Of a stretch of DNA of 64,000 bases, positions 1-45,405 are shown in pieces; the first letter of the stretch is position 1, and each line of letters opens with the position of its first letter. Both the position numbers and the translations under genes were made by a program. Source of the DNA: Natronospirales bacterium (lineage in GTDB: Bacteria; Pseudomonadota; Gammaproteobacteria; Natronospirales; REEB76); NCBI GenBank assembly GCA_021792635.1, contig JAJYUH010000003.1, forward strand, positions 101,795 through 165,794, written 5' to 3'. Below the pieces are notes generated by a model that searched no databases, had not been told where the DNA came from, and saw only the letters and a list, made by a program, of their open reading frames with translations.

Positions 1-73
1 ACGGCCGGTCCAATTCGGCGACGTACATGCCCTTGTCAAGTTGTTCGACGCGGTACTGGATCTTCAATTCCAT
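1..73 (-). CDS. 5' end of a gene that runs off the left edge; N-terminus resembles the DUF3391-type region that precedes HD-GYP domains
   Basis: Not in the ORF track. The minus-strand ATG at 71-73 is the first start after an in-frame stop. It reads MELKIQYRVEQLDKGMYVAELDRP and then leaves the window. The family guess rests on only 24 residues (recalled L-x-x-GMYV-x-x-LD pattern). Confidence 0.3.
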   Translation of the reverse strand, partial: MELKIQYRVEQLDKGMYVAELDRP

Positions 74-347
74 GCTCCAGTGAGCAACGCCTGATCAAAA
101 CCCCGCCAGGGAGTGTAATTCCATATCCGGTCGCCAGTCGAGCGTCTGTCAACCTGTCCGTCGTCAGCGTGGGGCAGGGTCGTCTGGCCGGCCGGAAGTC
201 GCCCAATCAGCCGGAAGTCACTTTGCCAAGGCAATCCATGCTGTCGCAAGAATGTACCGTGCCGGTGTGTGCTGCTTTGCGCTGAACCGTGCGCGAATTA
301 GCGTAGGGAAGAAGTACGCGCCGCAGGTGGCTGCATGGCCCGGGGGA

Positions 348-534
348 TTTATGCGGTCGCAGACAGAATACCCCGGGTTTACCCGGGGATGAATGAGCCC
401 GGCGGCGGTTACTACCGCCGCCGGTTCCTGAATCCTGGTGTTTCATCAGGATTCAGGTCAGTTCCGTATGGAACTGTAACGGTAAGGACCCCGGCTTTAG
501 CCGGGGGAATCTATTTTCAGACCCACACTCATCA
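348..534. repeat. Multi-hairpin repeat element, copy A (~185 bp)
   Basis: Five consecutive stem-loops: 371-388 ccccggg/ttta/cccgggg; 399-424 ccggcggcggt/tact-like loop/accgccgccgg; 427-457 cctgaatcctg...caggattcagg; 459-476 cagttcc/gtat/ggaactg; 489-506 ccccggc/ttta/gccgggg. A colinear homolog in the same orientation lies at 20527-20702. Confidence 0.7.
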
Positions 535-707
535 TGCCGAGATTATTGGCTCACCGGCAGGCTGCACTTGGTCCGTACCATTTGCCTGTCCGGGGCAGTC
601 ATCGTTGCGGCCCGTTCGACCGGGCCAGGCCGGACCCCGGCTGACCCGGCCTCATATCCGTTGCCGCCAAGCGCATCAAATATCTGTGTTCTCCGAACGC
701 GGGGTGA

Positions 708-2078
708 TTATCTGAATCTGTGCGGTGGATGCCGTATACGAGTCGGCGCGGGCCGGAATGACTGGGGCGCGGGCCGGAACACAGGCCTGTAGGTCTGCGG
801 TGGAGACCGGAATGACTGGGGCGCCGGCCGGTAGGAGGGCAGTGCGGCTTGTGGGGTAAACCGGTATGGCCGAGAGGAAGGCCGGTAGGCTGGTGAAGCA
901 GACCGGTATGGACGGAAAGCCGCATGCGACAGTTGCGATGAGGGCCGATAGACAGGCCGTGCGGCTTGTGAGGTAAACCGGAATGGCTGGGTCGAGGGCC
1001 GGTAAGCGGACCGGGACGCGGGTTGAAATGCTGTGCGGTGGGGCTGCCCGGGCCGTGCGGATCGTGGCAACCCTGCTCGCCATGGGTTTTGCCCGGCGCG
1101 CAGCTTGCCCGGTTGTGGACCATGCATATTGTTATTGCGGGTGACGAGCGGGTTACCCACCCGCCTGTTTCTGTTCACCAGGAAGCGGGTGCGGACCAGC
1201 CTGGTGAAGGTGACGTTGCGATGCACGCTGGCATAACTGTTTAGATTATTGACGTTCACACTGCGGTCGAGCACCGCACGGTTGACGGGGATATGCGCAT
1301 AACGGTTGCTGACATACACGTGGGTGATTTGAATGTACGGACGCGAACGTGCAATCCAGCCGTCACCGCGCCAGTCGGTGTAATAGATACGGTCATCGCG
1401 CCAGTCGCAGTCATAGTTAAGCCAGGCCCCGATGATGAATCCGGCGCCAAAAGATACGAGGTTCTCCTGAAATCCCTCTCCGTAACCATAGCCGCCTTGA
1501 TAATAGACCGCGTACGGATCGTACACCGGCACGTAGAGGTATTGGGGCTGGTACGGGTCAATTTGAATGTACCCCGGTTCCACGATCACCTGCTGTTGCT
1601 GGTTCGAAACCAGGTTGCCCGCGGAACGGGCCATTGCACGCAAGCGCTGGATGGAGGCCATGACATCCGTGGACTGATTCACATAAGCCTGTCCCAGCGC
1701 AGTGGTCCAGTTGATCTTGTCGTTCATCATGTAGAGCACAGACGGATAATGCGCAACCGCCTTGACACTGACATCCCAGGGCTGATAGCTGATTCCGCTC
1801 ACCCCGTTGGTACGCACCCACCGCGCCGCTTCCTGAATCTGATTCACAAATGTAGCGGCGGGCAAGACCTGCGCCAGCAGTGGGTCCGGATAGAGCGCAA
1901 TGGGGGCCAGCAGGTTATCCAATTGATTCGCGCTATAGGGGACGTACGACGACATGCCCCGGGGCGCCGCTGAAACGGCGGGGTACGCTCCCGGAGATGC
2001 GGCATTCACGAGCAGTGGTGCACTGGCGAGGCTGATCCCGAGTGAGCACAAGGCAAATGTTCGCAAGATAATGTGCAT
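708..2078 (-). CDS. DUF3300 domain-containing secreted protein with repetitive Pro/Arg/Tyr-rich C-terminus
   Basis: 456-aa ORF with signal peptide MHIILRTFALCSLGISLASA. The motif LLAPIALYPDPLLAQVLPAATF is typical of DUF3300. The C-terminal ~120 aa are low-complexity (YRPS/FRPAPQSFR repeats). Confidence 0.8.
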   Translation of the reverse strand: MHIILRTFALCSLGISLASAPLLVNAASPGAYPAVSAAPRGMSSYVPYSANQLDNLLAPIALYPDPLLAQVLPAATFVNQIQEAARWVRTNGVSGISYQPWDVSVKAVAHYPSVLYMMNDKINWTTALGQAYVNQSTDVMASIQRLRAMARSAGNLVSNQQQQVIVEPGYIQIDPYQPQYLYVPVYDPYAVYYQGGYGYGEGFQENLVSFGAGFIIGAWLNYDCDWRDDRIYYTDWRGDGWIARSRPYIQITHVYVSNRYAHIPVNRAVLDRSVNVNNLNSYASVHRNVTFTRLVRTRFLVNRNRRVGNPLVTRNNNMHGPQPGKLRAGQNPWRAGLPRSARPGQPHRTAFQPASRSAYRPSTQPFRFTSQAARPVYRPSSQLSHAAFRPYRSASPAYRPSSRPYRFTPQAALPSYRPAPQSFRSPPQTYRPVFRPAPQSFRPAPTRIRHPPHRFR

Positions 2079-2215
2079 AAATCACCTCCTGTCCGATGGA
2101 AAATCTACTCCATTATCAGAGCGGTGGCAGAAGGTGAACGGAATTTAATGCTGCGCTCATAATCACGGCTGCGGCACAGTTTGCTCTCGGATTAATGGTA
2201 TAGGTCCCCATTTGC

Positions 2216-3780
2216 TCAGGGTGTAACGGCGGCAAATGTGCGGGGGTCGCGGCTGAACAGGCCGTAGCTGAGCAGACTGATGGCTACGCCGCAGACAATG
2301 TAGTAGGCGGGTGACATGGGATTGCCGGTGAGTTTTACCAGCCAGGTGATGATCAGCGGAGCCAGTCCGCCAAACAGCATGACGCTGAAGTTGTAGATCA
2401 GCGAAACACTGGTGGAGCGTACGCCCACGGGGAACACTTCCGTGATCGCCGTGGGATAGGGACCCCAGATAAATCCGATGCACAGCGCCGAGATGAATTG
2501 CAGCAGTATGAAACGCGCGAGACTCGGCGCATGCAGCAGATATGCGGTCAGGCCGAAGGCAACGAGCGCGTACAGCAGCATTGCAAGCACCAGCATGCGC
2601 TTGCGGTTCCAGCGGTCCGAAAGGTAGCCGGTGAAAGGACAGAGCCCCACCAGCAGGATACCGCTCATAATGGTGGACAGGCCCGCATCGGCGAGCGGCA
2701 GATGCAGCTCCCGGTCGGCGAAGATCGGCATGTAGATGAAGGTAACGTAGAATGAAATGGTTGCCGCCACGGTGAGGCCAAAGCCGCTCACAAGGGACCG
2801 GCCGTTCCTGACAAACATGTTCCTGAAGCCGGCCAAGGTCCGGTCCGGATGTGATGCCCTGTAGGCTTCGAATTCAGGCGATTCCCGCAGACGCTTGCGG
2901 ATGTAGTAGCCGACAGGTCCGACCAGGATCCCGAACAGGAATGGCAGTCGCCAGCCCCAAGCGGCGAGCGAGCCGGCTGACAACCAGATGCTCAGGGCGT
3001 ACGCCGCGAAGCCGGCGAAGGTGATTGCCAGCGCCTGGGAGCACATCTGGAAGCTGCCGTAGAATCCGCGCTGTTGCGGCGGGGCGTATTCGATCAGCAG
3101 CGAAGTGGCCCCGCCGAACTCACCGCCGGCGGAAAATCCCTGGATGATACGCGCCACCACCACCAGAATCGGCGCGCTGATGCCGATCATGTGATAGCCC
3201 GGAACGAAGGCAATCATGCGATGAGCCAGGGAAGGCGCGAAGCGCCGAGGCGAAGAGCCTGCGGTAGCCCCAGCGGCCGTAGCACAGCGTCCGCGTGGTG
3301 CGAAGGCCGCGCCGGGGCGTAAAGCCAGGGTGGAGGAAACCGTGCGAAGTAACGGTTTCCGAACGCCGGGCGTGCCGCAGCAAAGGAATGGGCCGTCGCT
3401 GGAGCGAGTGGCCGGGACGCCGGGACCGTACCGGCCATCACGAGCGACGCGACGCTATCGGCGCTGCCCAAGGCCATCAACAGCACCATGTTGGCGACCG
3501 CCGACTTGCGGCCCATGCGGTCGGCATAGAGTCCGAAGACGATACCTCCGATGGGGCGGAAAAAGAACGCGATACCCAGCGTCGCCGTGCCCAGCAGCAG
3601 GGAATTGGTACTGGATTCGGCCGGAAAGAATTGCCTCGAGATGATGATGGTAAACAGCCCGAATACCGTAAAATCAAACCATTCGAAGGCGTTACCGATT
3701 GTGGATGCCGCGATCACCCGGTAGCGCAGCCTGGGTGGGATGGCCTGCAAGCCGGGCAGTGTGGTAGCGGGGTGTCCCAT
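2216..3780 (-). pseudogene. MFS transporter (metabolite:H+ symporter family, ProP/KgtP-like) interrupted by a ~245-bp insertion
   Basis: The N-terminal piece (3460-3780) reads MGHPATT...IGNAFEWFDF...ADRMGRKSAVANMVLLMALGSA. The C-terminal piece (2216-3214) reads IAFVPGYHMIGISAPILVVVARIIQGFSAGGEFGGA... Both are colinear with E. coli ProP as recalled (GR to IG spacing of 27 aa is restored if 3215-3459 is removed). They are separated by non-homologous sequence that shifts frame and ends in TGA overlapping an ATG. Confidence 0.75.
3215..3459. other. Structured GC-rich insertion inside the MFS gene (candidate miniature mobile element or structured RNA)
   Basis: Boundaries are inferred from loss of MFS homology and are accurate to a few nt. 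Perfect hairpin ggaaaccgt/gcgaagta/acggtttcc at 3345-3370. GCGAAG occurs four times (3237, 3250, 3300, 3354). A long imperfect hairpin is centred on ggccgg...ccggcc near 3400-3435. No ORF of its own. Confidence 0.5.
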
Positions 3781-19316: not shown

Positions 19317-19853
19317 CTAGGGGCAGGTAAGCGGCGTGCTGCCGTCAAGCCCGTAACCCACCGTAGTTGCGGCTTCTGCCAGACCGGTGGCGGACAAGCT
19401 GATGGCACGTGCATAGGTGGCGCCCCTGGAGTCGCAGAGTGTGAAGGTGACGGGTCCCAGGGGTGTGGGCGTCAGCATGCCGTTGGCCTGAAATGTGAAG
19501 CGGTAACTGTTATTGCTGGTGAAGGTGGTGTTGCCGCTGATGGCCGGGAATACCTGGATGATCGAGGTGGCGGCACCGGGAGGCAGGGTGTTGTAGTAGA
19601 CAATCCAGCCACTGGCCCAGGTGCTGCCGCCGCACGTGGTGTTGCTGCCGGCGCAAATGCTCACATCGGTACCGGTCTTGATGGCCTCGCTGCGGGCCAG
19701 TGTCAAGCCCGTGAGCAGACTGTTGACCCGGGAAAGGTCCCGGTCATTCCTGATGGTGGCGCTGAAATCCGGGATGGCGACCGTTGTCAGAATGGCAACC
19801 ACCGCCACCAGGATCAGCAGCTCAATAAGGGTGAAGCCGTCTTGGCGCTTCAT
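19317..19853 (-). CDS. fimU: FimU/FimT-like (GspH-domain) minor pilin, cassette 1
   Basis: ORF-track start 19904 trimmed to MKRQDG|FTLIELLILVAVVAILTTVAIP. Contains ARSEAIKTGTDVSIC...WASGWIVYY. Confidence 0.8.
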   Translation of the reverse strand: MKRQDGFTLIELLILVAVVAILTTVAIPDFSATIRNDRDLSRVNSLLTGLTLARSEAIKTGTDVSICAGSNTTCGGSTWASGWIVYYNTLPPGAATSIIQVFPAISGNTTFTSNNSYRFTFQANGMLTPTPLGPVTFTLCDSRGATYARAISLSATGLAEAATTVGYGLDGSTPLTCP

Positions 19854-20094
19854 TGCACTTCGCTCAAAAATAATTTGCATACGAAGAATATATGCGGTGG
19901 GCAATAAAAATGAGGGGTAATGGCGATAAGTGCGCAGAAATTCCCGATGAATGGTGGTCAGGAAGGCAAACCATATTTATTATTTTACATATTATTTATG
20001 ACAATCAGCCTTGCTGACAGGAGCTGCACGCAGCCGGCGGCACGCAAACCGTCTGGTGAGTGCCGGCCGGATCAAACAGGGGTGGGGCGGGGTA
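19854..20094 (-). promoter_or_regulatory. AT-rich intergenic region upstream of cassette 1 (likely promoter region)
   Basis: This is the only clearly AT-rich stretch in the block (ccatatttattattttacatattatttatgacaat at ~19970-20005). It lies between the pilE-2 stop and the fimU-1 start. No convincing -35/-10 or sigma-54 box could be fixed by eye. Confidence 0.3.
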
Positions 20095-20486
20095 TCAGTG
20101 TTCCCAGCAGGTGCTGGTGTTGAGGGCGCCGGCGGAATTGGTGGCGGTTCGATTGCCGGTGTTGTCGAGGCTGAAAGTGCGGCAGTCGGTATCATTGAGC
20201 TGGGTCCCCACCGCCGTGACGGTCAGGGTGTAGATGTCGGTGGTGACAGCCGGGGGCTCGGTCAGGGTGTAGTACCCGAACTGGGTGCTGGCGGGCAGGG
20301 AGGCGGCGGAGGGCGAGCACTGGGCGCTGTTATAGCGGAAGTACTGGGTGTAGCAGCGTTCCAGGATCTGGGAATCCTGACTGAGGAGGGTTTCCGCGTC
20401 GGAGCGGTGGGATTTCAGCACCGAACGTTCATAGGAGGGGTAGGCGATGGCGGCGATGATGCCGATGATGGCCACCACGATCATGA
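20042..20486. repeat. 445-bp perfect direct repeat, copy 2 (pilE-2 body plus 3' flank)
   Basis: Identical to 12547-12991. Confidence 0.85.
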
Positions 20487-20625
20487 ACTCGATCAGCGAG
20501 AAACCACATGCGTCCGGCCAGACAATTTTATGCGGTAGCAGACAGAACACCACGGGGTTGTCCGTGGATAAATGAGCCTGGCGGTAGTATTTACCATCAC
20601 CGGATCCTGAATCCTGGCGTTTCAC
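20095..20625 (-). CDS. pilE: PilE-like pilin, cassette 2, with a non-canonical 5' end (possibly a silent copy)
   Basis: The mature part FSLIEFMIVV...STCWEH is identical to pilE-1 except L6F. Upstream of Gly(-1) there is no short basic leader. The only in-frame start is GTG 20623-20625, 42 codons upstream and inside the hairpin repeat element. Confidence 0.55.
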   Translation of the reverse strand: MKRQDSGSGDGKYYRQAHLSTDNPVVFCLLPHKIVWPDACGFSLIEFMIVVAIIGIIAAIAYPSYERSVLKSHRSDAETLLSQDSQILERCYTQYFRYNSAQCSPSAASLPASTQFGYYTLTEPPAVTTDIYTLTVTAVGTQLNDTDCRTFSLDNTGNRTATNSAGALNTSTCWEH

Positions 20626-20702
20626 CGGGATTCAATTCGGTTCCAGTTGGAGCGGTAGCGGAAGGACCCCGGCTTTAGCCGGGGAATCTCTCCACTCATG
20701 AT
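20527..20702. repeat. Multi-hairpin repeat element, copy B (~175 bp)
   Basis: Colinear with 348-534 (ttatgcggt.gcagacagaa ... aatgagcc ... tcctgaatcctgg ... ggaccccggctttagccgggg ... cactcat). It fills exactly the gap between the small ORF-2 stop (20714) and the mature-pilin codons of pilE-2. Confidence 0.7.
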
Positions 20703-20713
20703 TGCGCTACATC

Positions 20714-21046
20714 TCAGTTTGGTTTGGGGGGAAGCACCACGATATTGAGGATGCGCGAAGCGGGAGCGGTCACCGGACCGTTTGCTATAAACCTGATTTT
20801 CATTCCTGGCTGCAGGGCGCCTATGTCTTTCACGCCCCCGGCGCCGATATAGGAGGCCTTGGGTGCAATCTTATACACATGACCGGCGACGGTGACGGTA
20901 CGGGTAGCGTAATTGACGAATTGGATGGTGCCGTTGCCCATGTTCTCAGAAGGAACAGGATAGCTCGCCAGTGCTGTTTGGCATACGCACAAGCCCATGC
21001 ACAGGGCGAGCCTCGGCCATAAGCCGGATTTCGGTAGCTTCGACAT
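20714..21046 (-). CDS. Small secreted protein at the pilY2 position, paralog 2
   Basis: 110 aa; signal peptide ...LALCMGLCVCQTALAS; same conserved core as 13043-13384. Confidence 0.7.
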   Translation of the reverse strand: MSKLPKSGLWPRLALCMGLCVCQTALASYPVPSENMGNGTIQFVNYATRTVTVAGHVYKIAPKASYIGAGGVKDIGALQPGMKIRFIANGPVTAPASRILNIVVLPPKPN

Positions 21047-45314: not shown

Positions 45315-45405
45315 TGGCGGAGGGGGTGGGATTCGAACCCACGTGGGGCGTAAGCCCCCAACCGATTTCGAGTCGGTGCCGTTGTGACCGCTTCGGTACC
45401 CCTCC
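45315..45405 (-). tRNA. tRNA-Ser (anticodon CGA)
   Basis: 91 nt: GGAGGGG-TA-CCGA...ACCGA-CTCGAAA-TCGGT-long variable arm TGGGGGCTTACGCCCCAC-GTGGG-TTCGAAT-CCCAC-CCCCTCC-G-CCA. The cloverleaf was folded by hand; CCA is encoded. Confidence 0.9.

Follow-up and report, generated by a model that had tools for sequence, protein, structure and literature searches.

A repeat in a Natronospirales contig is very probably a miniature derivative of a compact, tnpA-only IS200-group insertion sequence

IS608 of Helicobacter pylori and ISDra2 of Deinococcus radiodurans are the mechanistic paradigms for transposition of the IS200/IS605 type (PMC5934647, PMC5027513), and precise presence or absence of an element at a site is what such peel-and-paste transposition yields (PMC5027513, PMC5934647). 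Gene-less elements derived from IS200/IS605 have been described as PATEs, or IS200/IS605-derived MITEs, in Haloquadratum (PMC3119063), and PATE-like elements are documented in Geobacillus stearothermophilus (PMC10055086). Here we examined a repeat that occurs twice in the window, by which we mean the whole 64-kb stretch of DNA analysed. The original prediction had left this repeat unclassified, as a MITE-like mobile DNA, a REP/BIME-like composite or a structured RNA module. Our analysis makes it very probable that each copy is a non-autonomous miniature (MITE or PATE type) whose parent is a compact insertion sequence with tnpA as its only gene, from the IS200 group of the IS200/IS605 family. 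The first of the three options therefore stands, in the form of an IS200/IS605 miniature, and the other two are disfavoured by the transposase scores, the Rfam scan and the insertion polymorphism described below. The formerly unclassified repeat is now a defined mobile element, which joins the gene-less elements already known and does not constitute a new class, whether of elements or of RNAs.

Like PATEs, the copies carry no gene and have retained just the two ends, with their hairpins, of an IS200/IS605 element. In both cases inverted terminal repeats and target duplications are absent, and TnpA acting in trans is presumed to move the elements. Unlike PATEs, the copies have a tnpA-only parent with no tnpB, and hence no omega or guide RNA; they also have end sequences of their own, with TTTAT/TCTAT motifs, and their tnpA fragments rebuild long-range stems of the parent. 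With IS608 and ISDra2 they share subterminal hairpins in the same orientation at both ends of the top strand, a left site about 18-19 nt 5´ of the left hairpin and a right site that follows the right hairpin, on its 3´ side, within a few nt. Insertion likewise takes place next to, and 3´ of, a fixed motif of 4-5 nt, and the transposase is a Y1/HUH enzyme that matches the solved structures at E 1e-15 to 1e-16. The motifs differ (TTTAT/TCTAT here versus TTAC/TCAA and TTGAT), there is no tnpB, and the autonomous element is much smaller. The tnpA-only elements IS200 and IS1541 (about 700 bp) likewise have a single tnpA, a structured left end and a transposase of the same family, whereas the parent here is about 170 bp shorter and has other ends and a nested fold over the whole element. 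Classical MITEs such as Correia, ERIC and RUP are also short, non-coding, repeated and structured, and may adjoin genes and alter their 5´ ends, but, unlike the elements here, they have terminal inverted repeats, target-site duplications and DDE transposases.

The two copies are colinear and in the same orientation, both on the + strand (copy A, 353-514; copy B, 20532-20691), as first described. Their likeness was also recognised correctly, while the by-eye estimate of about 70% identity was too low: blastn gave 80.6% over 165 nt (348-512 versus 20527-20689). These are the only two family copies within the window, where each of three conserved motifs occurs exactly twice (expected 0 from 100 shuffles). 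The sequences originally called conserved linkers are left-end and right-end element sequence. The right boundaries, which had been placed at 534 and 20702, lie at 514 and 20691 according to family alignments and the empty site. Outside the element, 3-14 nt to the right of both copies, the 7-mer CACTCAT is found at 528-534 and 20694-20700; its occurrence in both right flanks is probably due to chance (rough p about 0.03).

Folded as single-stranded DNA, copy A forms exactly five hairpins, the number originally proposed, at -55.3 kcal/mol compared with -24.9 +/- 2.9 kcal/mol for shuffled sequences (z = -10.6). All lie on the + strand: the left-end subterminal hairpin H1 (371-388, CCCCGGG-TTTA-CCCGGGG), H2 (399-424), H3 (427-457), H4 (459-476), which covers the last tnpA codons and has a remnant of the TAA stop next to it at 477-479, and the right-end subterminal hairpin H5 (489-506, CCCCGGC-TTTA-GCCGGGG). 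In copy B, hairpins 1, 3 and the last are retained, with the left hairpin at 20550-20567 and the right hairpin at 20667-20684, whereas H2 and H4 are degraded (z = -3.6), which agrees with the loss of stems noted at the outset. The last hairpin does have the same sequence in both copies, and the C-G pair of copy A that is A-T in the first stem of copy B is a real double change. The pair is A-T in 43 of 46 family members, and the C-G of copy A is the exception.

Relatives were sought with a gapped pattern from both ends, scanned against one genome per species. The scan returned 8 loci, three of which (L002, L005, L007) were discarded as chance matches; homologues were found in MAGs of Gammaproteobacteria, Neptuniibacter, Nitrospinota (two copies) and Zixibacteria, with the gammaproteobacterial homologue 87% identical over its full length. 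The alignment of homologues has abrupt boundaries, starting with GCGGTCGCAGACAGAACACCACGGnTTTAnCCGTGGATGAATGAG directly after TTTAT and ending with AAGAACCCCGGCTTTAGCCGGGGGAATCTAT, and a variable middle. A blastn search of plasmids located the ends of copy A 524 bp apart on the Alteromonas macleodii plasmid pTE101a, around an annotated IS200/IS605 tnpA, and the same ends likewise flank a tnpA on a Francisella plasmid. Scanning of metagenomes with the left-end pattern matched at least 120 loci, while IMG/VR contigs and phage records gave no match to the element. A local duplication remnant, the reading first proposed for the case of only these two copies with no covariation support and no transcript, is contradicted by homologues in at least 120 contigs from several phyla. 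Among the matches listed, 50 elements were complete, 24 of them long (460-611 bp, mostly 532-541 bp) and 26 short, with 24 of the 26 at 134-167 bp; the contigs with short forms come from Gammaproteobacteria, Nitrospinota and Zixibacteria. Because the right-end pattern used to retrieve the elements demands ATCT[AC][TC], TCTAT is near-invariant partly by construction.

Most long elements encode a 142-aa protein that matches Pfam Y1_Tnp (7.7e-32), the NCBIfam transpos_IS200 equivalog (120 bits, cut-off 55) and solved IS200/IS605 transposases (E 5e-21 to 4e-15). Relatives of this transposase at about 70% identity are present on Vibrio plasmids, and it is 48% identical to copies annotated IS1541A. 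The family has an unusually small autonomous member (about 535 bp), and distant phyla share ends that are about 90% conserved.

Three blocks of copy A can be aligned with L089, a full-length element of 532 nt. Positions 1-57 of the copy correspond to 1-57 of the full-length element, which is the left end; 61-91 correspond to 135-165 (93.5% identity), which span tnpA codons K-Y-R-R-R-I-L-N-P-G-V; and 95-162 correspond to 465-532, with codons Q-D-S-G-Q...L-stop plus the right end. The miniature retains the parental left end (18 nt, the hairpin CCACGGG-TTTA-CCCGTGG and then ATGAATGAG) and the parental right end (the hairpin CCCCGGC-TTTA-GCCGGGG and then GAATCTAT), and its internal hairpins are built from short tnpA fragments, of which codon remnants can be read in copy A as ...YRRRFLNPGV at about 413-445 and DSGQFRMEL-stop at 450-479. 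Only about 11 plus about 9 codons of tnpA are left in the copies. The original statement that the element has no ORF of its own is right in that no intact TnpA-homologous ORF is present, and missed these remnants; no tnpA was found elsewhere in the 64-kb window.

The full-length alignment also accounts for the two internal hairpins next to H1. In stem S2 of the full-length element, nt ~46-57 are paired with the K-Y-R-R-R codons, the 3´ arm being codons Y-R-R-R, and the loop, which is deleted in the miniature, holds a promoter-like box, the ATG and about 22 codons. Stem S3 pairs the I-L-N-P-G codons with the Q-D-S-G-Q codons 300 nt downstream and so brackets about 300 nt of tnpA; its arms are codons (F/I)LNPG and QDSGQ. 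Since the arms of H2 and H3 are the arms of S2 and S3 in the full element, as judged by mapping onto the full-length IS, alignment and fold, H2 and H3 are these long-range stems minus their loops.

H1 and H5 are the predicted transposase-binding hairpins. Both read CCxCGGN-TTTA-NCCGxGG on the + strand, in the same orientation. Similar end hairpins pointing in the same direction are, on the sequence, a signature of the IS200/IS605 family and not of inverted-repeat transposons. Terminal inverted repeats are absent from the family alignment, in which GCGGTCG... at one extremity is not complementary to ...GAATCTAT at the other, and flank comparison and the empty site revealed no target duplication. 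The original prediction had reported both absences correctly and counted them against mobility, for which they are no argument, being normal for the IS200/IS605 type. We considered a classical DDE-type MITE and rejected it, given that both features are missing. A covariation test on a multi-copy alignment, suggested with the original prediction, gave compensatory changes in H1 (G-C/C-G and A-T/C-G), in H4 (double changes at 3 of 6 pairs) and in H5, a hairpin that is also documented by motif counts and fold. The apical pair of the left hairpin is G-C in 37 and C-G in 7 family members, and that of the right hairpin is C-G in 22 and G-C in 22; the end hairpins are maintained by compensatory changes.

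Copy A is preceded by TTTAT (348-352, +), the target or transposon-adjacent motif. When left flanks were anchored on the left-end core, with no boundary assumed, 93 of 117 distinct flanks had TTTAT in a single common register, and the remainder were mostly 1-2-nt register shifts of one subfamily. Conservation drops sharply just upstream of TTTAT, and the right flank is variable beyond the end of TCTAT, the putative right-end cleavage motif (a transposon-encoded motif; 510-514, + in copy A). Copy B is likewise preceded by TTTAT, at 20527-20531 (+).

By looking up the DUF3300 protein adjoining copy A, we found a related metagenome contig (L149) with an empty-site allele. L149:2795-2905 corresponds to window 300-570 and has flanks identical to those of the window, TTTAT included; a 163-nt block is missing, with no duplication, and the junction reads GGGGGATTTAT followed directly by TTCAGACCC (also GGCCCGGGGGATTTAT followed by TTCAGACCCACAC). 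The inserted block is 352-514 or 353-515, given a 1-nt T ambiguity. The missing block between identical flanks identifies copy A as a recent, precise insertion or excision; either event could have produced the empty allele, and from it we infer transposition. Two further contigs (L150, L151) stop exactly at window position 348, where assemblies break at the polymorphic insertion. The polymorphism implies an active TnpA in the population: on the strength of copy A, this uncultured gammaproteobacterium is predicted to have an active transposase of the IS200 group, and the copy is itself a live presence/absence marker for population genetics. With all of its signals intact, copy A is probably still mobilisable. 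Downstream, at 740-1000, several imperfect repeats are visible by eye (ggccggaatgactggggcgc...); on the minus strand they encode the proline-rich repetitive C-terminus of a DUF3300 protein, and Tandem Repeats Finder scored nothing on 1-3000, so that no tandem array is scored in this stretch.

As an alternative, the repeat could be a structured RNA, either a non-coding gene or a cis-regulatory module, such as a pair of sRNA paralogues that end in a terminator-like hairpin. In favour of this, copy A forms five stable hairpins, the last followed by ATCTATTTTC, with compensatory changes in the stems and a weak, non-significant likeness to PrrF and the rnk leader. We regard this reading as very improbable. 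No Rfam family matched at threshold, as had been anticipated: at the gathering threshold the sole hit in the whole window is an 88-nt tRNA (45318-45405, -), and at permissive E-values the region 250-650 gave chance-level hits, at best 18.6 bits for the rnk leader (threshold 55) and 17.7 bits for PrrF (threshold 90), both with E about 1. The repeat occurs in unrelated contexts in several phyla that have only TTTAT in common outside the unit, and its two ends recur in elements that carry a transposase. Nearly identical contigs differ precisely in whether they have it, and copy B lies antisense to the surrounding operon. The stems of the repeat are accounted for by transposase hairpins and tnpA remnants.

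Equally improbable in our estimation is that two full-length insertion sequences each decayed in place by deletion and the short unit never moved. The short form does consist solely of parental IS sequence, and copy B is visibly decaying. Yet copies A and B and a homologue in another MAG (L003) have the same three-segment architecture with nearly the same junctions, which points to one deleted ancestor that then spread, and the block absent from the empty-site contig is the short 163-nt unit itself. A REP/BIME-like element moved by a REP-associated tyrosine transposase is hardly credible: the hairpins are palindromic, intergenic and GC-rich and RAYTs are distantly related to IS200 TnpA, but the cognate 142-aa transposase passes the IS200 equivalog (120 versus 55 bits) and falls below the cut-off of the REP_Tyr_transpos model (23.9 versus 80 bits), the repeat forms a discrete unit of 160 nt whose left and right ends differ from each other, rather than a string of 20-40-nt palindromes, and the 64 kb contain it just twice.

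For the miniature IS200-group element, the IS608/ISDra2 paradigm (PMC5934647, PMC5027513) offers a plausible route of movement. A Y1/HUH TnpA encoded elsewhere in the genome would act in trans, binding both subterminal hairpins on the top strand while it is single-stranded at a replication fork. Cleavage would occur on the left after the TTTAT-type site, which precedes the left hairpin by 18 nt, and on the right after TCTAT, whose end is 8 nt 3´ of the right hairpin, with an uncertainty of 1 nt in the exact cleavage positions. The top strand, freed as a circle of single-stranded DNA, would then be inserted 3´ of a further TTTAT. For both copies the top strand is on the G-rich + strand and GC skew is positive across the window; for these two copies and an inferred direction of replication, this is consistent with the expected placement of the active strand on the lagging-strand template. 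An A/G-rich AGAAC, AGGAC or AGTAC precedes both hairpins; our search for an IS608-type pairing between guide and cleavage site found no convincing scheme, and the cleavage motifs are invariant and therefore without covariation. In copy B the right-end motif is TCTCT and one G is missing between hairpin and motif. This mutated motif, the 1-nt shorter spacer and the decayed inner stems together indicate that copy B is probably immobile.

The long-range stems S2 and S3 belong to a larger fold of the parent. RNAalifold, applied to an alignment of full-length elements (A4: L037:1145-1677 plus 18 others), predicted 94 pairs, 14 of them with double changes. Fifty-eight long-range pairs run through the tnpA coding sequence, and these are 97.0% paired, compared with 29-43% when partners were slid. 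Double compensatory changes affect 10 of the 58 pairs versus 3.5 +/- 1.4 in shuffles, none of 500 of which reached 10. A stem of 22 bp joins codons K-L-L-R-S-M-P-G-V to S-P-G-Y-F-V-S-S-V. Among the one-sided changes many are G-U/G-T, indicating constraint on the top, or sense, strand. Miniatures of the window type are the parental nested rod minus the loops of two stems, and other miniature subfamilies keep a long central hairpin and H4 with sequences that differ and are mutually compensated.

These patterns leave it possible, if rather doubtful, that the whole-element fold is under selection as a cis requirement of single-strand transposition, and is not an mRNA device or a by-product of deletion. 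The fold could join the left and right ends for a TnpA dimer or stabilise a single-strand circle; its role may lie either in transposition, as single-strand DNA, or in tnpA expression, as mRNA. If a transposition requirement is the explanation, the miniatures define a minimal folded substrate. The insertion sequence and its miniatures, which all keep a nested fold, are a natural series of minimal substrates for the cis needs of single-strand transposition. The tnpA ATG of the parent has an extended -10 box, TGGTATAAT, 6 nt upstream of it, a hint of a leaderless mRNA.

Copy B is on the strand opposite a minor-pilin operon, between the stop, at 20714, of a PilY2-like gene (20714-21046, -), 22 nt past the right end of the element, and an abutting PilE/ComP-like minor pilin gene (20095-20553, -; a 152-aa gene call). 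It had been said to have replaced the pilE leader, which overstates the case: 21 nt separate the TTTAT of copy B from the Gly(-1) codon (20503-20505). Upstream, the pilin has canonical in-frame starts only within the element, namely the GTGs at 20553 and 20625, and gene callers choose the one at 20553, which falls in the left-end hairpin. For annotation, the element is neither gene nor RNA, and the called pilE-like gene begins inside it. Copy B is almost unchanged in 10 of 10 related contigs, in which the region is 93-100% identical; it is probably a fixed fossil that now forms the 5´ region of the pilE-like gene. The pilin may be made with a chimeric 16-residue leader or may be silenced. We conjecture that before the insertion pilE started at GTG-GAT-AAA across the insertion point, with no good ribosome-binding site.

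A true empty site for copy B was sought via PilE homologues and not found. Two contigs (L143, L144) carry a 97% identical pilE with a normal leader, MTSPGANGRPVSG, and no element, and were rejected as empty-site alleles because their homology to the window does not reach upstream of the Gly(-1) codon (window 20505; L143:3037, L144:336) and the upstream operon differs, as in a recombinant operon. Their neighbours are a PilY2-like protein of 127 aa and a PilY1 of 1391 aa, and the leader differs. The position of the breakpoint suggests cassette-like recombination at the conserved pilin N-terminus. The longest ORF through copy B starts MKRQDSG... (20623-20625), from the loop of H3; the reading MK(H/R)QDSG is also present in copy A, so it belongs to the element and does not represent a pilin leader. 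A FimT/GspH-like gene beside pilE (19317-19904, -) starts MKRQDGFTLIE. In another contig, an IS21-family element (rve integrase plus IstB; L134:4444-7036, at window ~20412-20418) is located within the same pilE-like gene, and the alignment pieces on its two sides overlap by 7 nt, matching the expected target duplication.
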